Part shown: positions 1 to 12,656 of the stretch, one piece after another
Numbering within the stretch: the stretch's first letter is position 1
Layout: every line of letters begins with the position of its first letter
Assembly (NCBI GenBank): GCA_022616195.1
Contig: JAKEFG010000015.1
Coordinates: 9,354-73,353 of the forward strand
DNA from: Candidatus Wolfebacteria bacterium
GTDB taxonomy: Bacteria > Patescibacteriota > Minisyncoccia > Phycocordibacterales > EsbW-18
Reading direction: 5' to 3'
DNA: 64,000 nucleotides
Translations under genes and position numbers: made by a program
The notes under the pieces: generated by a model
What the model saw: the letters and a program-made list of their open reading frames with translations, nothing else
The model's database searches: none
Told to the model about the DNA's origin: nothing

Positions 1-8
1 GCTGGAGC

Positions 9-776
9 ATGGCGATGCTTATCATCATCTTTCCACTTTTTATTGTGCTCACTCGCATGGTGAACCAGAGTGTCCGACGGGAGCCTGCCAAAAAGGAGTT
101 GTGGATCAGACGCTGGCTTATCTACCTCACGCTTTTTATCGCAGGAGCGACGGTCGCTGTAGATCTTGTTGCTTTGGTAAACACCTTCCTTGGCGGGGAG
201 ATTACAGGGCGGTTTGCTGCCAAGGTGTTTGTGGTGTTTGTTGTTGCCCTCTCTGTGTTCGGCTACTATCTACTCTCCATTCGTGGTTATTGGGATACCC
301 GCGAGGCTACGTCAAAGCTCTTCGGGTGGGTTGTGGGGGTTGTTGCACTGGGTTCAATTATTGGAGGCTTCTTTATCATCGGTTCTCCCGCAACACAGCG
401 TGCGCTCCGTCTTGACCAGGAGCGCGTCTACAATCTCCAGAATATTCAGTGGCAGATTGTTGACTACTGGCAGAGCAAAGAAACGCTTCCGGCGGAACTC
501 GCATTGCTTGAGGATTCCATACGGGGATTCCGCGTGCCAGCTGACCCCGAGACAGGGGGACCGTATCGCTATGCGGTGACTGGCATGTATTCATTTGAGT
601 TGTGTGCGACATTTGTGCGCGCGAGTGCCGAAACACCCAAAGGAGTGCCGAGCACCCTACCGTACCGCGACGGAGGGCTGGACGAGAATTGGGAGCATGA
701 TGCGGGCGAGACATGCTTTACACGGACGATTGACCCGGAACTCTATCCACCTTATACCGAATCAGTAATCCGATAA
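9..776 (+). CDS. hypothetical multi-pass membrane protein; frame is open to the window edge, so the N-terminus may lie outside
   Basis: 255-aa ORF with at least four hydrophobic helices (IIIFPLFIVL, FIAGATVAVDLVALV, VFVVFVVALSVFGYYLL, GWVVGVVALGSIIGGFFII); no catalytic motif recognised. Confidence 0.5.
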   Translation: MAMLIIIFPLFIVLTRMVNQSVRREPAKKELWIRRWLIYLTLFIAGATVAVDLVALVNTFLGGEITGRFAAKVFVVFVVALSVFGYYLLSIRGYWDTREATSKLFGWVVGVVALGSIIGGFFIIGSPATQRALRLDQERVYNLQNIQWQIVDYWQSKETLPAELALLEDSIRGFRVPADPETGGPYRYAVTGMYSFELCATFVRASAETPKGVPSTLPYRDGGLDENWEHDAGETCFTRTIDPELYPPYTESVIR

Positions 777-857
777 CTAACGTACGATAAAAACATCGTC
801 CGCACTCATGCTACGTGAGGGCGGTTTGTTTCTGTGGTATAGTGTCATTCTACGGGG

Positions 858-3443
858 ATGGAACGCTATAACCACAAAGAAATAGAGAAGAGGTGGCAGA
901 AAAAGTGGAAAGAGCAAAAACTCTACGAAACGCCAGATACGGTGGAAGGGAAGGACAATTTTTACACGCTTGTGGAATTTCCGTATCCATCGGGTAATTT
1001 ACATGTTGGACATTGGTTTGCGTATATTGGTCCAGACATATTTGCACGCTTTATGCGTATGCAAGGAAAGAATGTACTTTTCCCGATCGGCTTTGATGCG
1101 TTTGGACTACCTGCTGAAAATGCTGCTATTAAGCGCGGTATTAATCCACGGGAGTGGACCTATTCGAACATCGCATACATGCGACAGCAGTTTGAAATGA
1201 TGGGAACCTCACTTGATTGGTCTCGAGAGATCATCTCGTGTGATCCCAGATATTATCGTTGGACACAGTGGCTCTTTCTGCAATTTTTCAAAAAAGGATT
1301 AGCATATCAAAAAGAAACGGAAGTGAACTGGTGTCCGTCGTGCAAGACGGTCTTGGCAAATGAGCAAGTGGTGACGGGTGTGTGTGAACGGTGTGGAACA
1401 GAAGTCGAAAAACGGCAGATGCTCCAATGGAATTTAAAAATCACCGACTATGCAGAGCGGCTCATTGATGATCTGGAAAAGCTCGATTGGCCAGAAGAAA
1501 TCAAACAAGCACAGCGGCATTGGATTGGTAGAAGTGAAGGTGCCCTCCTTACCTTTACTATCCAAGAACACAATGCGTCTGTAGAAATATTTACGACGCG
1601 TCCAGATACCTTGTTTGGTGCAACGTATCTGGTATTGGCTCCTGAACATACGCTCATTGAGTCCTTGAAAGATAAGATTACTAATTGGGATGAGGTGGAA
1701 GCGTATAGACAAACTGCACGGAAAAAAACAGATATTGAACGGACTGCTCTCGGAAAAGAAAAGACCGGAGTTGAGCTCCAGGGAATTACGGCACTCAATC
1801 CAGGCACGCAAGAGGAAATTTCCGTCTGGGTTGCTGATTATGTACTTTCTCACTATGGCACGGGCGCTATTATGGCGGTACCAGCACACGATGAGCGGGA
1901 TTTTGCGTTTGCACAGAAGTTTAACTTGGAAAAAGTTTGCGTTATCGAGCCGCGCTCTCTGGATGATTTTACCTTGCGCAAAATGCAGGGGGTGAGTGGG
2001 GAAGAAAAAATTACAGGTAGGGCTGTTGCATATTGGCCTGATGCCGGAGAGACACCGGAGCACGGTTTTAAGAGGGAGGTTGCCGCAATTCTTGCTGGAA
2101 AGTCCGTTTATGTCGGGGAAGGGACACTGGTGCACTCTGGAAAGTTTGATGGGATAACAACACAAGAGGCACGTGAGGCAATCACCAAAGCGGTTGGAGG
2201 CGAAATGAAAACAACCTACAAACTTCGCGACTGGACGGTGTCGCGACAGCGCTACTGGGGATGCCCGATTCCGGTCATTCACTGTGCAAAATGCGGTGTG
2301 GTACCCGTGCCGGAGCATGACCTACCGGTTGTGCTTCCCGAAATTGATGACTTCATACCGACAGGGAATGGTAAGTCGCCCTTAGCGAAAGTGGTGGATT
2401 GGGTGAATGTGAAATGCCCAGAATGTGGTGGAGATGCCGAGCGCGAGACCGACACCCTGGATACGTTTGTTGACTCGTCATGGTACTTTCTCCGCTACAC
2501 CGACCCGCACAACGACAAGGAGTTTGCATCGCGCGGGAAACAGGAGGCGTGGATGCCCGTTGGTTTCTATTCGGGTGGCGCGGAACACACGACCATGCAC
2601 CTTCTCTATTCCCGTTTCTTTCACAAGGTATTATTTGACCTCGGTTTGGTTGCCGACACGGAACCGTATGTTCGTAGAATGAATCGCGGACTCATCCTCG
2701 GTCCCGACGGCAACAAAATGAGCAAGTCAAAAGGAAACGTTATTGATCCCGATGATATGGTGGAGCGGCTCGGCGCGGATACCGTGCGGATGTATCTCGC
2801 GTTCATCGGTCCCTACAATGAAGTCGGCGCGTATCCGTGGAATCCGGACGGTGTTGTCGGTGTTCGACGGTTTCTTGAACGGGTGCATGTACTGGTTACA
2901 AAGATTGCAGAGGATAGGAAGAGACTGAAAGACGTCTCTGGCGGATCTGTTTTGATTCACAGAACTGTGAGGTTTGTAACTGAGGTTATCGGACGGCTCA
3001 AATTTAATACTGCCGTTGCACAACTCATGATTCAGTTTAATGGCGAGAATAGTGAACCTGATTGGCGAGGTAAACTTAATAACAAGGGAGAGTGGGAGAG
3101 TATGGAAGTAGACCTCATGGCCCTTAAGATGTTTTTAAAACTTCTTGCACCGTTCGCGCCGCACCTTGCGGAAGAATTGTGGTACCAACTGGGGAATACC
3201 ACCTCTGTCCATCTGGAGCCGTGGCCTGAGTACGACCCGACGCTCGTCGAGGAAGAACAGGTGACCATTGTGGTACAGGTGAACGGCAAGACGAGGGGAG
3301 AGTTCGAGGCAGCCCAAGATATTGATGAGACGGACGCGCGGGAGCGAGCACTTACTCTCCCGACGGTGGAAAAGTGGCTTGGGGGGAAGGAACCCAACAA
3401 AGTTGTCTATGTCCCCGGGCGGTTGGTAAATATCGTTGTCTAG
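858..3443 (+). CDS. leuS: leucyl-tRNA synthetase
   Basis: 861 aa; class I HIGH-type motif (PYPSGNLHVGHW), KMSKSKGNVIDP motif, CP1 editing region; ATG 14 nt downstream of TGgTATAGT extended -10 (835-843). Confidence 0.97.
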   Translation: MERYNHKEIEKRWQKKWKEQKLYETPDTVEGKDNFYTLVEFPYPSGNLHVGHWFAYIGPDIFARFMRMQGKNVLFPIGFDAFGLPAENAAIKRGINPREWTYSNIAYMRQQFEMMGTSLDWSREIISCDPRYYRWTQWLFLQFFKKGLAYQKETEVNWCPSCKTVLANEQVVTGVCERCGTEVEKRQMLQWNLKITDYAERLIDDLEKLDWPEEIKQAQRHWIGRSEGALLTFTIQEHNASVEIFTTRPDTLFGATYLVLAPEHTLIESLKDKITNWDEVEAYRQTARKKTDIERTALGKEKTGVELQGITALNPGTQEEISVWVADYVLSHYGTGAIMAVPAHDERDFAFAQKFNLEKVCVIEPRSLDDFTLRKMQGVSGEEKITGRAVAYWPDAGETPEHGFKREVAAILAGKSVYVGEGTLVHSGKFDGITTQEAREAITKAVGGEMKTTYKLRDWTVSRQRYWGCPIPVIHCAKCGVVPVPEHDLPVVLPEIDDFIPTGNGKSPLAKVVDWVNVKCPECGGDAERETDTLDTFVDSSWYFLRYTDPHNDKEFASRGKQEAWMPVGFYSGGAEHTTMHLLYSRFFHKVLFDLGLVADTEPYVRRMNRGLILGPDGNKMSKSKGNVIDPDDMVERLGADTVRMYLAFIGPYNEVGAYPWNPDGVVGVRRFLERVHVLVTKIAEDRKRLKDVSGGSVLIHRTVRFVTEVIGRLKFNTAVAQLMIQFNGENSEPDWRGKLNNKGEWESMEVDLMALKMFLKLLAPFAPHLAEELWYQLGNTTSVHLEPWPEYDPTLVEEEQVTIVVQVNGKTRGEFEAAQDIDETDARERALTLPTVEKWLGGKEPNKVVYVPGRLVNIVV

Positions 3444-3554
3444 AGGCGTTTCTGAGCTTGCCTTCTGCCATTTCTCAAGAAATGGTAGGGGGTTGACGGA
3501 GATAATGGTCGGTGCTAGAATGAGTGGCTGTGAGACAAGTACTACCTCTAAAAC

Positions 3555-3583
3555 TTGCACTTATTGCTCATTTGTGATATAGT
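3555..3583 (+). promoter_or_regulatory. sigma70-type promoter TTGCAC-17nt-TGaTATAGT; -10 ends 6 nt before ATG 3590 (leaderless mRNA implied); a second TTGACG-17-TAGAAT lies at ~3493-3521
   Basis: hexamers and spacing read directly from sequence. Confidence 0.5.
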
Positions 3584-3589
3584 GGTGCC

Positions 3590-4642
3590 ATGGCTACGAA
3601 AGCAAAATCGGAGAAAACGGTGAAATTGAACTTTGTCCCGAAACAGGTTGTCAAGCGCCTGCTTGCCGTGCTTCCTGATCGTGCTGTTGATGTCCTGACC
3701 CGTCGGTATGGACTCGGAAAGGACACCGGTCGTATGACGCTTGAAGCCATCGGTCAGATTTACGATATTACCCGAGAGCGCGTCAGACAGATCGAGAATT
3801 ACGCGCTCGGGGCCATCCGCAAGTCCGAAAGCTATGAGAAGGAAAGTAAGGCCATTGATGAGCTCGAGCGGCTCATCAACGCGATGGGGGTGGTTGTCCC
3901 GGAAGAATTTTTTCTCGATGAGGTTGCAAAGGACAAGAGCACCCAGAACTACATACACTTTCTGTTGGTGCTCGGTCACCCGTTCACTCGTTTCAAGGAA
4001 GACGAACATTTTACGCATCGCTGGCATATTGATGCAGATGTCGCCCGTGGTGTTGAGGAGGCGCTGAAGAACTTGTACGCGTCACTGCCGGACGAAGAGC
4101 TTCTGTCGGAGCCGGAGCTCATGACGAGATTTCTGTCACATCTCAAAGAGCTCGCGGACCAGTACCGCGACGAAGAAATTCTGAAACGCTGGCTTTCGCT
4201 CTCGAAGAAAATTGCCAAAAGCCCTCTGGGCGATTGGGGACGTGTTGAGTCAACTGCGGTGAGCCCCCGCGGCATTCGCGACTATGCGTATCTGGTGATT
4301 CTTCGGCACGGCTCACCGCTCCACTTCACCGAAGTGGCGAAACAAATCAGCAAGCTATTTGACCGGCGGGCACACACTGCAACCGCGCACAACGAGCTCA
4401 TAAAGGACCAACGGTTCGTGCTTGTCGGACGCGGGCTCTATGCACTCTCGGAGTGGGGATACATGCAAGGTGTCGTCAAAGACGTTATTGTCGAGATTCT
4501 CAAACAGCACGGTCCGCTGACCAAAGAGGAAATCATTGACCGGGTGCTCAAGGAACGCTACGTGAAGGGAAATACTATCGCGGTCAATCTGCAGGATCCG
4601 ATGTTTAAGAGGACAAAGGACGGGAAGTACGCGCTCGCGTAG
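3590..4642 (+). CDS. sigma-70 region-4-like HTH protein with ~280-aa uncharacterised C-terminal extension (not a complete sigma factor)
   Basis: N-terminal LLAVLPDRAVDVLTRRYGLG..TLEAIGQIYDITRERVRQIENYALGAIRK matches sigma70 region 4 / FliA-type HTH; regions 2 and 3 absent; remainder helical with no known motif. Confidence 0.8.
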   Translation: MATKAKSEKTVKLNFVPKQVVKRLLAVLPDRAVDVLTRRYGLGKDTGRMTLEAIGQIYDITRERVRQIENYALGAIRKSESYEKESKAIDELERLINAMGVVVPEEFFLDEVAKDKSTQNYIHFLLVLGHPFTRFKEDEHFTHRWHIDADVARGVEEALKNLYASLPDEELLSEPELMTRFLSHLKELADQYRDEEILKRWLSLSKKIAKSPLGDWGRVESTAVSPRGIRDYAYLVILRHGSPLHFTEVAKQISKLFDRRAHTATAHNELIKDQRFVLVGRGLYALSEWGYMQGVVKDVIVEILKQHGPLTKEEIIDRVLKERYVKGNTIAVNLQDPMFKRTKDGKYALA

Positions 4643-4784
4643 CAGCTCGGAACACTCTCCTTCAAAATTCCAGATGCCTGCATGCGCCGCTCTTGAGCGG
4701 CTGTTGGGCTCTGTTGTTAACAGAAACATACAGCTGGTATACATTCGCGGCAGAAACCAGTGGTGTGTTGGGAAGGAGGTTCAG

Positions 4785-5117
4785 ATGGAGAAAGAGGAAA
4801 TCCTACATCAAGCAAATGAGATCGTCGGCGAGCACGGTCTTGTCGCCGAGCTTCTTGAAGGGGTTCTATCTGTAGGTGTTGGTGGGGATGAGCGAACCTA
4901 CTTACCCGTGCTTTGTCTGCGGGGTTCGTTTCCAGGCGACGCTTCGAGAGATTTCTACCAAGCTCACGAACGAGTTACCTATCAACAGGGTGACATTCGA
5001 GCTTGCTCGTGCGTCCCAGTAACAGCGGAGTCACGTGTCTCGGGAAGTTATCGTACGGCGGCTTCCCCGTTTCTTTTCCTGCGAACCACTTACTACCCAC
5101 TACAAACTACGGACTGA
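4785..5117 (+). pseudogene. guaA: relic of GMP synthase C-terminal (dimerisation) domain; ATP-PPase and GATase domains absent
   Basis: GVLSVGVGGDERTYLPVLCLRGSFPGDASRDFYQAHERVTY aligns with GuaA C-terminal consensus ([39 protein letters not shown]); sequence after this diverges; strong SD AGGAGG 5 nt upstream and TGgTATACA -10 at ~4735-4743. Confidence 0.45.
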
Positions 5118-5134
5118 AGTGGTATCATGACAGC

Positions 5135-6430
5135 ATGGACATTCTCCGTGAACTTTTTACCGGTCCGGGTCTTAACCTCACTCTGAGCGGTCTGCGCCTG
5201 CTTGCGCTTGCCGCGCCGGTGTGGCTGCCGCTTGTGCTCGGTATCGGTTTTTGGAAGGTGTGGGTAGGGTATCGGCGAGCGGCGTTTATTAGTAGCATGG
5301 AGTGGGTATTTCTCGAGATTCTATTACCCCAGGAAATCACCCGCTCGCCGCTCGCCATGGAACTGGTGCTCAATACGTTCCAACAGAGCTTTGGCGAGGC
5401 GCATGCATATGAAAAGTACTGGAAAGGTGGGGTGCGTCCGTGGACGTCGCTTGAGCTTGTATCTGTTGAAGGATCCGTGCATTTCATCATCCGGATACAT
5501 AAGGGAAGCCGTGCACTCATCGAGTCACAGATTTACGCAGAATATCCCGATGTCGAGATACACGAGGTTCCTGACTATATCCACGGCATTGATTTCGACA
5601 ATGAACTCGTGCAGTTATGGGGCGCTGAGTTTGCGCTTACCAAAGCCGACCCGTATCCTATCAAAACCTACGTCGACTACGGTCTCGATCGCGATCCGAA
5701 AGAAGAGCAAAAGATAGATCCGATTGCGCCGGTCATTGAATGGCTCGGCTCGCTCGGTGCCGGCGAGCAGGCATGGATTCAAATACTCGTTCGTCAGCAT
5801 AAGGACGAAACGCCTAAAATGGTCGGACCGTTCCGAAAACTTGTTGAGTTCAAGGCAGACAAGAAAAAGCTCTCCGAAAAAATCAAGTTCTTCCCGACGA
5901 CTGATGCATGGAAGGATGCAGTAAAGAAAGAAATCGAGAAAGTCGTGAAGGAGCGGAAAATCCAGAGTAAGGATGAGGAAAGCGGTCCCGTGAAACTCAC
6001 GCGCATGGAAGAAGAGGTCATCACGGCGCTCGAGCGGAGCATCACCAAGGCGGCATTCGATGTTGGTATTCGCGGTATGTATGTCGCTGAAAAGGACAAG
6101 TTCAATCCGGCGAACATCGGCGGGCTCATCGGCTCGTTCAAGCAGTACAGCACGAATCACCTCAATGGCTTCAAGCCGGGTAAGACCACCGGCGTGAAAG
6201 CGCCCTGGCAGGACCCGTTCGGCACGCGGGTGCCGAGGCGCAAGCGCATCATGCTTGATGCCTACAAGCGCCGGAGTTATTTTCATTCGCCGTACAAGCG
6301 CAAGCCTTTCATTCTGAACACGGAAGAGCTCGCGACGATGTATCACTTCCCGGGACGCGTTTCTACGACGCCGACATTCAAGCGTCTTGAGGCACGAAAG
6401 GCGGAGCCACCAGCACACTTGCCGATGTAA
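5135..6430 (+). CDS. conserved hypothetical protein, N-terminal membrane anchor (LRLLALAAPVWLPLVLGIGFW), charged helical middle, C-terminal FILNTEELATMYHFPG motif
   Basis: long ORF with good coding character; start chosen at ATG 5135 because the upstream part of the ORF overlaps the guaA relic in another frame. Confidence 0.7.
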   Translation: MDILRELFTGPGLNLTLSGLRLLALAAPVWLPLVLGIGFWKVWVGYRRAAFISSMEWVFLEILLPQEITRSPLAMELVLNTFQQSFGEAHAYEKYWKGGVRPWTSLELVSVEGSVHFIIRIHKGSRALIESQIYAEYPDVEIHEVPDYIHGIDFDNELVQLWGAEFALTKADPYPIKTYVDYGLDRDPKEEQKIDPIAPVIEWLGSLGAGEQAWIQILVRQHKDETPKMVGPFRKLVEFKADKKKLSEKIKFFPTTDAWKDAVKKEIEKVVKERKIQSKDEESGPVKLTRMEEEVITALERSITKAAFDVGIRGMYVAEKDKFNPANIGGLIGSFKQYSTNHLNGFKPGKTTGVKAPWQDPFGTRVPRRKRIMLDAYKRRSYFHSPYKRKPFILNTEELATMYHFPGRVSTTPTFKRLEARKAEPPAHLPM

Positions 6431-6438
6431 TTCGACGT

Positions 6439-7407
6439 ATGACACGTCTTCTTGACTCGGTGAATACATTCCTGCCGCTTTCGTGTCTCACGGCGATTGC
6501 TGTTTTACTTGGGACAGCCTTGGTTCTTGTGGTGAGTCCGCCGCATGACTTTCCGAAAGGACAAGTAGTGGTGATCCCATATGGGGCAACACTCTCCGAG
6601 GTCGCTCGTGAGTTTGACTCACTTCAGTTGGTGAGATTTTCCACAGTGCTCAAATCGGTGATTCTGTTGCTCGGAGCATCTGAAACCATTCAGGCTGGTG
6701 ATTATATGTTTGCCGAACCGGTTGGTGTGATTACTTTGGGGCAGCGTATTGTGCGCGGAGACTTTGGATTGGATTACATCAAGGTACGTCTACCCGAGGG
6801 TGCTACACGGTATGTAATGGCAGATATTCTTACGGCAGCGCTACCGCACTTTGAGCGGGAACAATTTCTTGAGATAACAGAGGGATATGAAGGGTTTTTG
6901 TTTCCAGATACATACTTCTTTTCTCCTTCAGTAACTACCGAGGACGTTATGAACGCCCTGAGAGAGACTTTTGTTGAGAGGACAAGACCACTGAGAGATG
7001 AGGTGGCAGTGTCAGGGCATTCGTTTAGCGAGATTGTAACTATGGCATCGCTTGTAGAGCGTGAGGCACACGATCCGAGAGACCGGCGTCTTATCTCTGG
7101 AGTTTTGTGGAGACGTATTGCTATTGATATGCCGCTTCAGGTTGATGCGCCGTTCGTGGCACTCTTTGGTAAGGCATCTCATGAATTGACGCAAGACGAC
7201 CTTGCAACAACATCGCCGTACAACACGTATGTCCACAAGGGACTTCCACCAGAGCCTATTGGAAGCCCAGGACTTGATGCCATCCACGCCGCCCTTGACC
7301 CAACGGAATCGGACTACCTCTACTACCTTTCAGATACTAAAGGGGTGACCTATTACGCCGTCACATTTGAAGAGCACAAACGAAACAGAGAAATGTACCT
7401 CAACTAG
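6439..7407 (+). CDS. mltG: endolytic murein transglycosylase MltG/YceG
   Basis: N-terminal TM, YceG-like domain, C-terminal YNTYVHKGLPPEPIGSPG motif. Confidence 0.88.
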   Translation: MTRLLDSVNTFLPLSCLTAIAVLLGTALVLVVSPPHDFPKGQVVVIPYGATLSEVAREFDSLQLVRFSTVLKSVILLLGASETIQAGDYMFAEPVGVITLGQRIVRGDFGLDYIKVRLPEGATRYVMADILTAALPHFEREQFLEITEGYEGFLFPDTYFFSPSVTTEDVMNALRETFVERTRPLRDEVAVSGHSFSEIVTMASLVEREAHDPRDRRLISGVLWRRIAIDMPLQVDAPFVALFGKASHELTQDDLATTSPYNTYVHKGLPPEPIGSPGLDAIHAALDPTESDYLYYLSDTKGVTYYAVTFEEHKRNREMYLN

Positions 7408-7473
7408 GCCTTTATTGAGTAACCTTCGGTATGTTCGTACCCAGTGCTCTGCACATGATTTCCACAGAGCGGC

Positions 7474-7501
7474 TTGACTCTCAATTGCGAGGGAGTATAC
7501 T
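7474..7501 (+). promoter_or_regulatory. sigma70-type promoter TTGACT-16nt-TATACT upstream of the 23S-5S locus
   Basis: consensus-like hexamers. Confidence 0.5.
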
Positions 7502-7581
7502 TGGGGTATATATGAAAGCGACACAGAACTACATAGAGAGGCGGAGAACGTAGCTAGGCTATTTTGGTAGTGTGCCAAGTC

Positions 7582-7604
7582 TCCGCTCCGAGAGCGGATT
7601 TTTT
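7582..7604 (+). terminator. intrinsic-terminator-like hairpin (tccgctc-cga-gagcgga) followed by TTTTTT, ~75-95 nt downstream of the 7474 promoter
   Basis: 7-bp GC-rich stem plus T6 tract. Confidence 0.5.
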
Positions 7605-7614
7605 AGTTCTTGTT

Positions 7615-7650
7615 CCCGAGGTGCAACCTGTTCGCAGGTTGCACCTCGGG
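7615..7650 (+). other. perfect 16-bp stem hairpin with UUCG tetraloop (cccgaggtgcaacctg-ttcg-caggttgcacctcggg) in the 23S leader
   Basis: exact inverted repeat. Confidence 0.7.
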
Positions 7651-8330
7651 AGACGGAACGGAAAACACGATGGGCTGACTGGACGTTGACAAGCAAATAC
7701 ACGATAGAGAATCAAAGTCTCCGCTGACACGCGATGCGTACAGGCGGAGCAAGCAGGTAATTAAGTAAGGTATCAATGCTTGACATTGATACGCGGTTTT
7801 TAGATTTCCTAATAGGAGATCTGATAAGGGCGCACGGTGGATGCCTTGGCTCTAAACGGCGATGAAGGACGCGGCATGGCGGCGATATGCTTCGGGGAGG
7901 TGCCTAGCAACCTACGATCCGGAGATTTCCGAATGGGGAAACCCTGCGAGGTCAACCCTCGTGATCCTCTGATTCATCAGAGGAGGCACACCCGGGGAAG
8001 TGAAACATCTCAGTACCCGGAGGAACAGAGACTAATAAGTATTTCCTGAGTAGCGGCGAGCGAAATGGAAGAAGCCCAAACTCTGTGAAGCGAAAGCTAT
8101 GCAGAGGGTAGTAGGGTAACAACGTCATCTTTGATGAGGAGAGTTATAAAATGTTCTTCGTTAGCTGAATTCGTTGGAAAGCGAAGCCCGAGAGGGTAAT
8201 AGCCCCGTAATGCGAAAACGGAATGTCTCTCTTGTTGTTATTCCTGAGTACCCCGAGACATGAATAGCTCGGGGGAATCTGCCGGTACTAACCGGTAAGG
8301 CTAAATACGTTTAGAGACCGATAGTGAACC

Positions 8331-8361
<31 letters not shown>

Positions 8362-9636
8362 GGAGAGGGGGGTGAAATAGACCTGAAACCGTGCGTCTAC
8401 AAGGAGTCGAAGTGTCTTTTGGCACAACGGCGTGCCTATTGAAGAATGAGCCAACGAGTGTACGTGTACTGCTCGGCTAAGTCCTTTGTCGGACGAAGCC
8501 ACAGGGAAACCGAGTGTTAACAGCGCGAACTATAACTTTTTGCCGTGCGTGTGTTTCCTAGGACGCATGGTAAAGAGTTATCTGTAGTACATGTACGACC
8601 CGAAGCCGGGTGATCTACCCATGACCAGGGTGAACCTTACCGAAAGGTGGGGGGAGGCCCGAACCGATACGCGGTACAAAACGTTCGGATGAGTTGTGGG
8701 TCGGAGTGAAAAGCTAATCGAACCCGGTAATAGCTGGTTCTCTCCGAAATAGCTTTAGGGCTAGCGTTATGTGTTTCCCTCGGGGGTAGAGCACTGGAAG
8801 GAGTAGACAGGGCGAAAGCTCGCTTCTCCTATCAAACTCCGAATACCGAGGGTTAGAGCATAGCAGTTAGACTATGGGCGCTAAGGTCCATTGGTCAAAA
8901 GGGAAACAGCCCAGACCTCAAGCTAAGGTCCCTAAATCGACACTAAGTGCACGTAAGGAGGTGCAATTTCTCTGACACTGAGGAGGTTGGCTTAGAAGCA
9001 GCCATCCTTTAAAGAAAGCGTAACAGCTCACTCACTTAGAGATTGTGCGCCGCAAATAATCGGGGCTAAGTGTCGTACCGACGCTGAGGATTGTATCCCG
9101 TTTCGACGGGGTGCAGTGGTAGGAGAGCATTTCTATTGCTATGAAGCCCCTGTGTAAACCGGGGTGGAGCGATGGGAAGAGAGAATGTTGGCACAAGTAA
9201 CCGCAAGGCAGGTGCGATCCCTGCCCGCCGAAATCCCAAGGTTTCCTTGGCAATGTCAATCAGCCAAGGGTTAGTCGGTCCTAAGGAGATGGCGAAAGCC
9301 GTATCCGATGGACACACGGTTAATATTCCGTGACTTCCTGTTCATTCGATGGAGTAACGGAGGGTTGTACACGTTGCACATTATTGGATTTGTGTGCATG
9401 CTTTGAGGGAGTCAGTTAGGCAAATCCGGCTGACGCCACCCCGAGAAGTGTGCGGAATTCCGCTACGGCGGGAGAACAACGTGGAGCACGCTCCCGAGAA
9501 AAACTTCTAAGGTTCATGTCCAGGAAACCGTACCGCAAACCGACACAGGTGGGAAGGTCGAGAAGACCAAGGCGAACGGGTGAGAGATCCTCAAGGAACT
9601 CGGCAAAAAAGCGGCCGTAAGTTCGCAATAAGGCCT

Positions 9637-10028
9637 CCCAGCACTAGATTAAGTTCTTAAATGTAAACAGTAAGGAGAAAAAGCATGACAAATGAGCAGT
9701 ACCTAAAGGCAATCGGTGAAATGAAAAAAATAATACCGGCAGAAATTTTACCGGAGAGGATTGACACAAGCCGTAAATTCTCTGAAACTTCTGTAGAACA
9801 GAAGTTAAAACATTCTCTATATTTGTTAGAGAATGTCCCGACTTTTCTCGAGGTAGGAAAACGAGAAAAATCATCAAGACATTTAGCTTTTGCTCAGGCA
9901 ATCCTTTGGTCTTTGGACATGTTGGCAATCGACCAATTAATGGATTTCAACAGAAGATGATCATAATCGGGTGGTGATGATTATTTTTCACGCTCCCCGA
10001 ATTTTTAAGAATTTAATCTAGTGCTGGG
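9637..10028 (+). other. IVS-like insertion in a variable 23S helix (approx. E. coli helix 63 region), closed by a ~25-bp stem with one G-U; ~340 nt inserted
   Basis: cccagcactagattaagttcttaaa ... tttaagaatttaatctagtgctggg are reverse complements; flanking sequence continues into GACTGTTTACCAAAAACACAG (E. coli ~1770-1785). Confidence 0.65.
9685..9960 (+). CDS. 91-aa protein encoded inside the 23S IVS-like insertion (hypothetical, all-helical)
   Basis: ATG preceded by TAAGGAG 7 nt upstream; terminator-like hairpin plus T-run after the stop (~9955-9990). Confidence 0.55.
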   Translation: MTNEQYLKAIGEMKKIIPAEILPERIDTSRKFSETSVEQKLKHSLYLLENVPTFLEVGKREKSSRHLAFAQAILWSLDMLAIDQLMDFNRR

Positions 10029-10185
10029 CGCAGCGAAAGTATCCCTGGCGACTGTTTACCAAAAACACAGCTCCCTGCGAACTCGTAAGAGGATGTATAG
10101 GGGGTGACGCCTGACCAATGCCAGAAGGTCAAACGCGGAGGGTACATGTGACTTCGGTTATATGTGCTGGACTGCGTAAGCCCTG

Positions 10186-10224
<39 letters not shown>

Positions 10225-10883
10225 CAATTCCTTGTCTGGTAAGTTCAGACGTGCACGAATGGCGTAACGACTGGGGAACTGTCTCGAGGATTCGCCCGGT
10301 GAAAATGCAATGGGGGTGAAGATGCCCTCTACCTGCAGTTAGACGAAAAGACCCCAGGAGCTTTACTGTAACTTGATAGTGGGGGTACGTAGTATATGCG
10401 TAGCATAGGTGGGAGACGTTGAAGCGAAGGTCTCGGCTTTCGTAGAGTCGCCAGTGAAATACCACTCTTATATAGCGTGCTTTCTAACCTCGACGGCAAA
10501 AACGGCGGGGGACAGTATCTGGTAGGCAGTTTTAGTGGGGCGCTATCCTCCTAAAAAGTAACGGAGGAGCCTATTACGGTCAGCTAGGCGCGAATGGAAA
10601 CCGTGCCGATAGTGTAATGGCAGAAGCTGGCCTGACTGCAAGGGGTACATCCCGAGCAGGCGCGAAAGCGGAGCATAGTGAACCGAGAGTTCCCTTTAGA
10701 CGGGGCTCGAGATTAACGGATAAAAGTTACCCTGGGGATAACAGGCTGGTCCTGCCTAAGAGTCCATATCGACGGCAGGGTTCGGCACCTCGATGTCGGC
10801 TCACCGTATCCTGGCGCTGGAGAAGGTGCCAAGGGTTTGGCTGTTCGCCAATTAAAACGGTACGCGAGCTGGGTTCAGACCGT

Positions 10884-11360
10884 TCTGGGCATGAATCATA
10901 AGATATGAATCATGAATAGAGCAGTCTGAATCCGCTCATAACGACACAATCGTTTTTTCGTCTATGAAATAAGTCCCGATTTTGATGTATCAAAATCGAG
11001 GATCCCGACCAGAGCGTCGGGAATAGAATCAACCTAATCACGGCGGTCATGTGTAGTAATACGCATGTATCAAGCTGACCCCGATTTTGATGTATCAAAT
11101 CGAGGATCCCGACCAGAGCGTCGGGACTAATATCGGTGAATTTCTAGCTTCTAGGTAAGAAGAAGGAGGACACCGAGGGAATGGTTCGACTTTGCTCACC
11201 ACGAGCAAATAGAATTCGGCCCGTAGAGACTGAACGTCAGCGTTCCTTACTCATGTTTTGTGTTATACGCGACATGTGTTGGGAATATGCTACAGTCCGA
11301 TCCCGCCGGTAACGGCGGTGTGGCTAGACGCTAGGAGCTAGCGGCTAGTTGCTACAGTTG
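10884..11360 (+). mobile_element. ORF-less group-I-like intron inserted exactly after U2593 (E. coli numbering) of 23S
   Basis: exon reads GGGUUCAGACCGU | CGUGAGACAGG, matching E. coli G2581-U2593 | C2594-G2603; 5' exon ends in U and insert ends in G, as for group I introns; longest ORF <65 aa. Confidence 0.6.
10975..11126 (+). repeat. two direct copies (10975-11022 and 11080-11126) of a 48-bp element, each made of two hairpins (cgattttgat-gta-atcaaaatcg and tcccgac-cagagc-gtcggga), separated by 57 nt, inside the L2593 intron
   Basis: copies identical except one A in the A-run. Confidence 0.85.
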
Positions 11361-11423
11361 CGTGAGACAGGTTGGTCTCCTATCTACTGCAGGCGTTGAT
11401 TCTTGAGGGGAGCTGCTCCTAGT

Positions 11424-12251
11424 AAGTAATTGCTACTCTTCGGAGAGATCCGAAGTGACAATGTGGCTTATAACGGTGAAGCCTTCATATGATTACTGTC
11501 CGAGGATTGTGAATAGCTATTGGTCCAGCTATGGTATAATTCGCTTGCGGACCGTAATCCGCTGCAAGGTAATACCGTGGGAAGTCGATCTCAAACACAC
11601 ACAGCGTATATAGCGGGTTTTCTTGATGGTGACGGCAGTTTGATGCTGCAGATCAAAAAACGATCTGATACAAAACGAGGTATTCGTTTTATGGCAACAA
11701 TCTGTCTGTATCAAGATACTCGCCATGAGAGGCCGCTGTGCTGGATGCGTGAAGTTTTAGGCATTGGATATCTATCTCGACGCCGTGACGGCATTACAGA
11801 GTTACGTATCAATGGCTTTAGTCAGTGCAAAACAATTCTTGAACAACTAGTACCGTATATACGGTTTAAGAAGGTTCAAGTGAGTGCATTGCTCGAGGCA
11901 TGTACGGTACTGTGTACGACGCCGTTTTCAAAGCTCACGAAACAACAGCAGAAGTATTTGGTTGACCGTATTGTGATCATTCAACATGAAAACTATACAA
12001 CCAAGTCAAAAAAGCGTAGGGAAGAGCTGTATGCATGTTTGGATTTGACCCCGTAACGACTTGTTCATGTAGTTGCCACTACATGGCGGACTTGCTGATG
12101 TATTGAATCAGGAATGTATTCCTGACAATCTCAGTGGGTAACATGCCGCCACCCTCGTCCTCCATCTCATGGGGAACGGGTGAAGATATAGTCTATGCTC
12201 CTGGAAACAGGGGAGTAATCTTGTTTTTCAAAAGTGAAACAAGAGATACAT
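11424..12251 (+). mobile_element. 828-nt intron in the sarcin-ricin loop of 23S (after U2656), carrying a LAGLIDADG homing-endonuclease gene
   Basis: flanking exons join to GCUGCUCCUAGU|ACGAGAGGACCGGAGUGGAC, identical to the E. coli SRL sequence; 5' exon ends U and insert ends G. Confidence 0.75.
11520..12056 (+). CDS. single-motif LAGLIDADG homing endonuclease, I-CreI-like
   Basis: YIAGFLDGDGS motif; ~170 aa; GIGYLSRRRDG and LEQLVPYIRFKKVQVSALLEAC segments parallel I-CreI GVGYVRDRGS / FLTQLQPFLKLKQKQANLVLKII; ORF-track start is TTG 11520; in-frame GTG 11577 lies after a perfect TGgTATAAT (11531-11539). Confidence 0.85.
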   Translation: MVQLWYNSLADRNPLQGNTVGSRSQTHTAYIAGFLDGDGSLMLQIKKRSDTKRGIRFMATICLYQDTRHERPLCWMREVLGIGYLSRRRDGITELRINGFSQCKTILEQLVPYIRFKKVQVSALLEACTVLCTTPFSKLTKQQQKYLVDRIVIIQHENYTTKSKKRREELYACLDLTP

Positions 12252-12545
12252 GACGAGAGGACCGGAGTGGACTGACCGCTGGTGTACGAGCTGTCCTGCC
12301 AAGGGCATCGCTCGGTAGCTATGTCGGGACGGGATAACTTCTGAAAGCATCTAAGAAGGAAGCCCACCCCAAGATTAGGAATCATTAAGACCCGTGAGAG
12401 ATGATCACGTTGATAGGCACCAGGTGGAAGCACAGTAATGTGTTGAGCCGAGGTGTACTAATTCGTCGAGTATCTCCTATTAGGGAATCTGAAAATCGCT
12501 TAGTTCCTGCTTTTCTATCGTGTAGGCGACTGACTTTAAGTGTTG

Positions 12546-12656
12546 TGTGTTGGTGGTTCGACGCTGTGGAGACACCCGTTCTCATTCCGAACACGGCAGT
12601 TAAGCACAGTAGTGGCGATGGTACTCGCAAGGGGAGAGTAGCTAGCCGCCAACACA
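12546..12656 (+). rRNA. rrf: 5S ribosomal RNA
   Basis: CCGUUCUCAUUCCGAACACGG..GUAGUGGCGAUGGUACUCGCAAGGGGAGAGUAGCUAGCCGCC; ends pair as helix I. Confidence 0.85.

Follow-up and report, generated by a model that had tools for sequence, protein, structure and literature searches.

A small helical-protein gene in a stem-closed insertion at helix 63 of a Parcubacteria-like 23S rRNA gene

What is a small protein gene doing inside a 23S rRNA gene, and how might it be expressed from there? The role of the cargo carried by rRNA insertions is a standing question. Intervening sequences (IVSs) that bear an ORF have been known since the work on Leptospira and Coxiella, and outside CPR bacterial rRNA seldom contains an insertion that codes for protein. 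We know of no function for the PF05635 “IVS protein”, although the family has been known for some 30 years. The window analyzed here, a single stretch of 64 kb, holds an element of this kind in helix 63 of its 23S rRNA gene, and the family of its predicted 91-aa product adds a type of cargo distinct from PF05635 and the homing endonucleases.

Such a find is less surprising in CPR, since protein-coding rRNA insertions are both common and described there (Tsurumaki et al., 2024; PMC11270868). As far as the accessible text of that survey goes, CPR often carry insertions in their rRNA genes, some of which code for proteins (Tsurumaki et al., 2024, citing Brown et al., 2015), and non-intron insertions with small ORFs (GIY-YIG, 23S_rRNA_IVP) have been described, so that protein-coding insertions other than introns are already known from CPR rRNA. 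In the same accessible text cargo is annotated through Pfam only, so that an ORF without a Pfam domain would stay uncharacterized, and helix 63 is not mentioned. Nor was cargo resembling phrog_7775 found reported as rRNA-borne in the literature, as far as the accessible texts extend. What is new at the present locus is a phrog_7775-like cargo, predicted to be helical and related by sequence neither to PF05635 nor to homing endonucleases; the use of helix 63 as a landing pad for varied cargo; and an apparently imported gene led by a Shine-Dalgarno (SD) sequence against the background of an SD-poor host.

The stem-loop on helix 63 and its host gene

The insertion comprises 392 nt (9637-10028, + strand) at the tip of helix 63 in domain IV of the 23S rRNA, where it replaces the hairpin at E. 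coli positions 1707-1751 (MAFFT alignment against E. coli rrlH, L009). These 392 nt compare with 45 nt in E. coli, which makes the element an insertion as defined for CPR rRNA (at least 100 bp relative to E. coli rRNA; Tsurumaki et al., 2024). A repeat search finds only one inverted repeat in the segment, whose 25-nt arms (9637-9661 and 10004-10028) are 96% complementary and enclose 342 nt; the one position of the stem that is not a Watson-Crick pair is a G-U. In the minimum free energy (MFE) fold of 9620-10045 the same 25 bp form the closing helix, and the fold is very stable (-130.5 kcal/mol, z = -6.45), with none of 100 shuffled sequences reaching its stability. Comparison with the mini-hairpins of related 23S genes identifies the outermost ~6 bp of the stem as the native base of helix 63. 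An earlier, sequence-only reading of this DNA had placed a segment of ~340 nt at the tip of a variable 23S helix; this is correct, because relatives hold a mini-hairpin at the same position, and the 25-bp stem with its single G-U pair is likewise reproduced exactly.

The element also stands apart in composition, with a GC content of 37-42% against about 50-56% in the flanking rRNA. An Rfam search of 9630-10035 gave no significant match, to an intron or otherwise, even at E ≤ 10, and the segment shows neither group I nor group II structure. A promoter scan found no promoter-like site on the + strand inside the insertion. The apex of a surface helix of 23S rRNA is thus replaced by a long, near-perfect stem of 25 bp without intron structure, and long insertions at this position are sporadic among relatives (see below). 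These are features of RNase III-type IVSs, the geometry that the sequence-only reading had proposed.

The host 23S rRNA gene spans 7814-12470 on the + strand (cmscan with LSU_rRNA_bacteria, 2121.8 bits; MAFFT alignment against rrlH). A whole-window Rfam scan ends the gene at 10965 because of two further insertions downstream. Re-alignment of the 3′ part continues through model position 2912 at window position 12469, which puts the true end at ~12470, 79 nt 5′ of the 5S rRNA gene (12549-12654, Rfam scan). Both downstream insertions are intron-like, with Intron_gpI scores below the gathering threshold. The second insertion of the gene (10884-11360, 477-480 nt; 19.7 bits) follows E. coli position 2593 (model position ~2621), and the third (11424-12252, 829-837 nt; 21.3 bits) follows position 2656 (model position ~2685) and includes, at 11520-12056, a LAGLIDADG_1 ORF (Pfam E = 7.5e-10). 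Both positions are listed as LAGLIDADG hot spots of CPR rRNA genes in the accessible part of the CPR survey, which also describes several insertions within one 23S gene (PMC11270868). Smaller differences from E. coli are insertions at 8104-8156 (53 nt, after position 287) and at 8528-8557 (30 nt) and 8575-8596 (22 nt), the latter two near positions 651-668, and small deletions of E. coli positions 1160-1167 and 2779-2796.

No 16S or tRNA gene lies 5′ of the 23S gene in window positions 1-7813, so that over a distance of at least 7.8 kb the 16S gene is not linked to 23S-5S. The gene that precedes the 23S gene is a YceG-like ORF ending at 7407. Neighbors within the window include genes for DUF5671 and DUF8128 proteins, LeuRS, YceG, FtsW and RNase R; the signature motif of RNase III is absent from the 64-kb window, which covers part of the genome. 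From these neighbors, the sites of the 23S insertions and the nearest 23S genes (Ca. Adlerbacteria, Paceibacterota and Niyogibacteria; the nearest is ~82% identical), the host looks like a member of the CPR/Parcubacteria type.

The 91-aa protein and its family

Inside the loop lies an ORF of 91 aa that starts with ATG (9685-9960, + strand), and the Shine-Dalgarno sequence TAAGGAG (9671-9677) ends 7 nt 5′ of the start codon. Both are present as the sequence-only reading had described them. The same reading had reported a hairpin plus T-run behind the ORF, and here only the description holds. There is a weak A/T-rich hairpin at 9963-9988, with 6-bp arms ATAATC (9963-9968) and GATTAT (9979-9984), a loop of 10 nt and TTTT immediately afterwards. 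As an intrinsic terminator it is unconvincing and was rejected: a terminator scan of the + strand does not report it, and the MFE fold puts the T-run in the loop of another hairpin.

Is this ORF a gene? An exhaustive HMMER search of 1.84 billion representative proteins with a cut-off of E ≤ 1e-3 returned 60 representative homologs (best 8.2e-17 at 52% identity, next 9.5e-14), nearly all of them 82-135 aa long and aligned end to end. The exhaustive search was needed, as a word-indexed search with the single 91-aa protein found nothing. The alignment has the signature H..Y[ML]...EKA.R[WH]LGF.QG.LW...ID.L...NRP, and its near-invariant residues H43, K62, R65, L67, Q71, and N89 (window numbering) are all kept in the window protein. 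An AlphaFold2 model built from the family alignment (mean pLDDT 97, pTM 0.87) predicts an all-helical protein with helices at residues 3-16, 37-56, 60-76, and 82-90, in line with the helical product expected from the sequence alone; its calculated mass is ~10.7 kDa and its pI 8.0. Taken together, the homologs, the conserved residues and the confident model indicate that ORF 9685-9960 is a genuine protein gene.

Both a chance ORF and an assembly artefact are effectively refuted. The homology, at E = 8e-17, is to independent proteins, and the boundaries of the insertion fall exactly at the base of helix 63, where they form the 25-bp stem, which a chimera would not do. Nothing specific speaks for chance. 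An antisense ORF of 94 aa (9644-9928, - strand) does lie across the helix-63 gene, with a similar score for host codon usage; homology lends it no support, and most likely it arises as a by-product of the sense gene, which is AT-rich.

The family leads to phages. phrog_7775, a phage family without known function, matches 53 of the 61 aligned proteins, the window ORF being counted among the 61 (best 5.2e-16). The phrog_7775 HMM does not match the window protein itself at E ≤ 0.01. This protein sits in a divergent branch, with R-H-L instead of R-W-L, and is tied to phrog_7775 through intermediates only. Pfam has no match for it at E ≤ 10, nor for any other of the 61 aligned proteins; NCBIfam returns only noise for it, and neither PADLOC nor a PDB sequence profile search gives a match, so that a function is not assignable. 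Pfam likewise finds no homing-endonuclease domain in the ORF. A HEPN-like or nuclease role, considered on account of the conserved H/E-K/R/Q/N residues, was rejected as unsupported by any motif or fold, and no such claim is therefore made.

How does the protein relate to the four-helix-bundle IVS proteins? The sequence-only reading had recognized in it no motifs of this family, PF05635 (23S_rRNA_IVP), and had suggested that it may be a different IVS-borne protein, and the profile searches bear this out. Membership of PF05635 was rejected, there being no Pfam match. Comparison of the family alignment with the PF05635 proteins 2gsc and 2rld by hhalign gives a probability of 0.08% with one aligned column, and a PDB profile search with the family lists no PF05635 chain. 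As positive controls, 2gsc and 2rld, both solved PF05635 proteins, score 1.9e-35 and 2.1e-32 against the Pfam 23S_rRNA_IVP profile. Because it is unrelated in sequence to PF05635, the 91-aa protein is to be regarded as an IVS-borne protein of another kind, with 60 homologs of its own.

The gene appears foreign to its host. Its GC content is 37%, and 37% at third codon positions (GC3), against 54 and 59%, respectively, in 44 long host ORFs. Only 5 of these 44 have GGAG, GAGG or AGGA upstream, and host genes with well-defined starts (e.g., at 858, 6439, 13580 and, on the - strand, 17752) have no Shine-Dalgarno sequence; the 16S anti-SD lies outside the window. Given the SD-poor host genes, and given that the GIY-YIG ORFs which relatives carry at this site (see below) lack a strong SD, TAAGGAG looks as if it came in together with the gene, the simplest source being a phage or another bacterium. 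With little or no SD in host genes, efficient translation of an SD-led ORF in this host is uncertain.

Where do the homologs reside? Eight were examined (P0028, P0062, P0068, P0001, P0002, P0072, P0066, and P0067), and all are free-standing genes, none of them in rRNA. Most have CPR-like chromosomal settings, adjoining SecY-Adk-Map, a PilM cluster with pseudouridine synthase, NusA, or an RND pump, and one lies in a phage-like gene array. An Rfam scan of seven loci (L002-L008), which cover five homologs, detected no rRNA. Two contigs, L004 and L156, are syntenic across the PilM cluster, a tRNA-binding protein and the pseudouridine synthase, and the homolog gene is therefore a stable chromosomal resident in that CPR lineage. 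Searches with tblastn place typical family members in jumbo phages (Agrobacterium phage Atu_ph07, Sinorhizobium phage Phosso, and a 735-kb uncultured phage) and in rV5-like coliphages. All of them are hypothetical by annotation, the source entries naming a “hypothetical protein” only, and those of Atu_ph07 and the rV5-like coliphages stand amid arrays of small hypothetical genes. The free-standing homolog P0062, from one CPR lineage, is located directly 3′ of two tRNA genes (L004, 5438-5915; L005, 1106-1583).

A further copy in rRNA was sought in several ways. Searches with the back-translated product found no rRNA-borne or close copy of the ORF in GTDB genomes, JGI metagenomes or IMG/VR; the family occurs in 0 of 143 other Parcubacteria 23S loci among the matches listed; and the 64-kb window contains no paralog elsewhere. 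When the ORF product and the FtsW-like neighbor were searched for by exact match, the only other contig to appear was one of 8.4 kb from Logan (SRR16971108), which ends ~200 nt into the 23S gene. No second rRNA-borne member of the family came to light in these searches.

Helix 63 in related 23S genes

How unusual is an insertion at this site? The exact 27-nt 3′ flank is shared by 23 genomes among the GTDB species representatives, all of them CPR (Ca. Adlerbacteria, Paceibacterota, Niyogibacteria, Wildermuthbacteria, Nomurabacteria, and some labeled Saccharibacteria). A metagenome search for the 5′ flank yielded at least 120 loci, 115 of those listed having both flanks. The flank pattern used biases this sample, which covers the matches listed, so that its counts are minimum values. 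Helix 63 is a mini-hairpin of 16-40 nt in 21 of the 23 GTDB relatives, and the other two, L010 and L023, have long-stem insertions without an ORF, ~165 and ~220 nt in length. Among the metagenomic matches listed, 89 of 115 have a short hairpin and 26 (23%) have 84-574 nt between the flanks, compared with 411 in the window. Closing stems in these 26 long insertions measure 12-32 bp, with a median of 19 when the window is counted in, against a median of 7 bp in the short hairpins, again among the matches listed. Long-stem insertions are thus present in about 20% of 138 related 23S genes (23 plus 115, among the matches listed), in which helix 63 more often has the form of a hairpin of 15-38 nt, and none is identical to that of the window. 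The sequence-only reading had called for a comparison with the 23S genes of relatives; none of the helix-63 insertions in these 138 genes, among the matches listed, carries a member of the 91-aa family.

Other cargo does occur there. Five metagenomic insertions (L034, L062, L073, L089, and L126), with 327-340 nt between the flanks, contain stand-alone GIY-YIG ORFs of 83-101 aa (Pfam E from 1e-16 to 5e-18). They resemble the window element in their site, in a closing stem of 19-26 bp, in the size of their ORF, and in overall length (~310-320 nt against 392 nt). They differ in encoding a nuclease domain without a strong SD, whereas the cargo of the window is predicted to be a helical non-nuclease and has a canonical SD. 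One further insertion of 316 nt (L137) holds an unrelated ORF of 77 aa, one of 574 nt (L064) has no clear ORF, and the remaining long insertions are also without a convincing ORF. Within this flank-biased sample, stem-closed insertions have settled repeatedly in helix 63 of the Parcubacteria clade, and their cargo is interchangeable.

The stems themselves may be related. The closing stem of the window (9637-9668 and 9996-10028) is ~80% identical to that of the ORF-less L085 and similar to that of the GIY-YIG-bearing L062, with compensatory differences, although the overall 23S identity of L085 and L062 to the window is only 67-74%. This likeness hints at a shared or transferred stem scaffold in which the cargo has been swapped.

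Could the whole element then be a mobile cassette? It would be a selfish element of the homing type, with the 91-aa protein in place of a GIY-YIG nuclease and aiding mobility or maintenance. Such an origin would suit the GIY-YIG ORFs of like size, architecture and site in five related lineages, the resemblance of the stem to those of L085 and L062 in otherwise distant 23S genes, and the foreign composition. However, the 91-aa protein bears no nuclease or DNA-binding signature; it is predicted to be all-helical, with a pI of 8.0. The eight homologs are free-standing, and five that were checked (L002, L004, L006, L007, and L008) lack the long flanking inverted repeats of a mobile stem-plus-ORF cassette. 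One of the positions is syntenic in two CPR contigs, and no other rRNA-borne copy turned up in GTDB, JGI, IMG/VR or the 143 listed 23S loci. We regard a mobile cassette as decidedly unlikely.

The singular occurrence of this cargo raises another prospect, that a phage-derived gene landed by illegitimate recombination in a pre-existing long stem and is now a neutral passenger or being lost, with no expression of consequence. The element is unique among the 138 relatives (among the matches listed), its composition and translation signal are unlike those of host genes, and the ORF-less long-stem insertions L085, L010, and L023 would represent a possible end state. But the ORF is full length with every near-invariant residue in place, its modeled fold reaches a pLDDT of 97 and the SD spacing is intact, and a decaying passenger is accordingly very unlikely.

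Proposed release and translation of the element

We favor a different account, that the helix-63 element is an RNase III-type IVS with a new cargo in the 23S rRNA of a Parcubacteria-like CPR bacterium, and give it a probability of roughly 60%; its excision and translation are inferred. Perfect duplexes of at least 20 bp are canonical RNase III substrates. The element extends the helix-63 tip of what is taken to be the single 23S gene of the host and would be transcribed only within pre-23S rRNA, because no internal promoter was seen on the + strand. RNase III would cut the 25-bp stem and release the IVS without religation. The 23S rRNA would then be left in two pieces of ~1.8 and ~1.1 kb, once the downstream intron-like insertions are removed, and the ribosome would hold the pieces together. 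The released, stem-capped RNA, present at rRNA-level abundance, could act as mRNA for the 91-aa protein. Horizontal transfer is the most likely route by which the gene itself reached the helix-63 stem, a recurrent landing site, its donor being a phage or another CPR genome. Our working guess is that the product is a phage-type accessory protein that gains expression from the rRNA transcript, rather than a factor that processes the IVS.

Several published observations fit these steps. CPR bacteria retain rnc (PMC12641178). In E. coli, insertions into helix 63 are tolerated, and eukaryotic ES27 sits at this same helix (PMC2441807). The accessible part of the CPR survey reports that insertions in rRNA genes do not remain in the transcripts and that a portion of them may be IVSs of the RNase III type (PMC11270868).

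Would the segment instead stay in the mature ribosome? A helix-63 extension could be retained in mature 23S rRNA like an ES27 expansion segment, its ORF untranslated or translated from the precursor only. The eukaryotic ES27L also emerges from H63, where the ribosome tolerates large additions (PMC2441807). The compact and very stable fold of the insertion would agree with such a structure, and cleavage is only inferred here. ES27L is retained in mature rRNA in a structural or regulatory capacity and encodes no protein, whereas the present element contains an intact, foreign gene with an SD and an AT-rich composition, unlike a structural expansion segment. A near-perfect 25-bp duplex in a lineage that keeps rnc, together with the reported absence of CPR rRNA insertions from transcripts in the accessible survey text (PMC11270868), also argues against retention, which we hold to be unlikely.

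If the excised IVS is translated, a foreign gene would owe its expression to the rRNA promoter and to processing by RNase III. A broader proposal is that phrog_7775-like proteins form a second, independent class of IVS proteins, small and helical like those of PF05635 (S23p/Avd) and, like them, found free-standing, in phages and at times within rRNA IVSs. Their residence in rRNA would then be an adaptive expression strategy, in which transcription at rRNA level and RNase III release of a stem-capped mRNA serve protein expression, and what they do may be linked with the ribosome, with RNA processing or with the conflict between phages and CPR hosts. This is a long shot. The practical value of the locus is modest: besides a testable site, it offers an alignment and a confident structure model for a phage/CPR family that is otherwise anonymous.

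Read as an RNase III-type IVS, the element has its closest counterparts in the ORF-bearing 23S IVSs of Leptospira and Coxiella burnetii. Those are likewise insertions of a few hundred nt in a surface helix, with a long stem and one small all-helical ORF, and they too are sporadic and belong to hosts whose genomes are reduced and have one rRNA copy. They differ in their cargo, the PF05635 (S23p) four-helix bundle, to which the protein of the window is unrelated in sequence. The short IVSs of Salmonella, Yersinia, and Campylobacter are excised by RNase III. In these, too, the loop of a surface helix has given way to an extended stem, and the distribution among strains is sporadic, but they are only ~90-150 nt long, non-coding, and located in helices 25 and 45.
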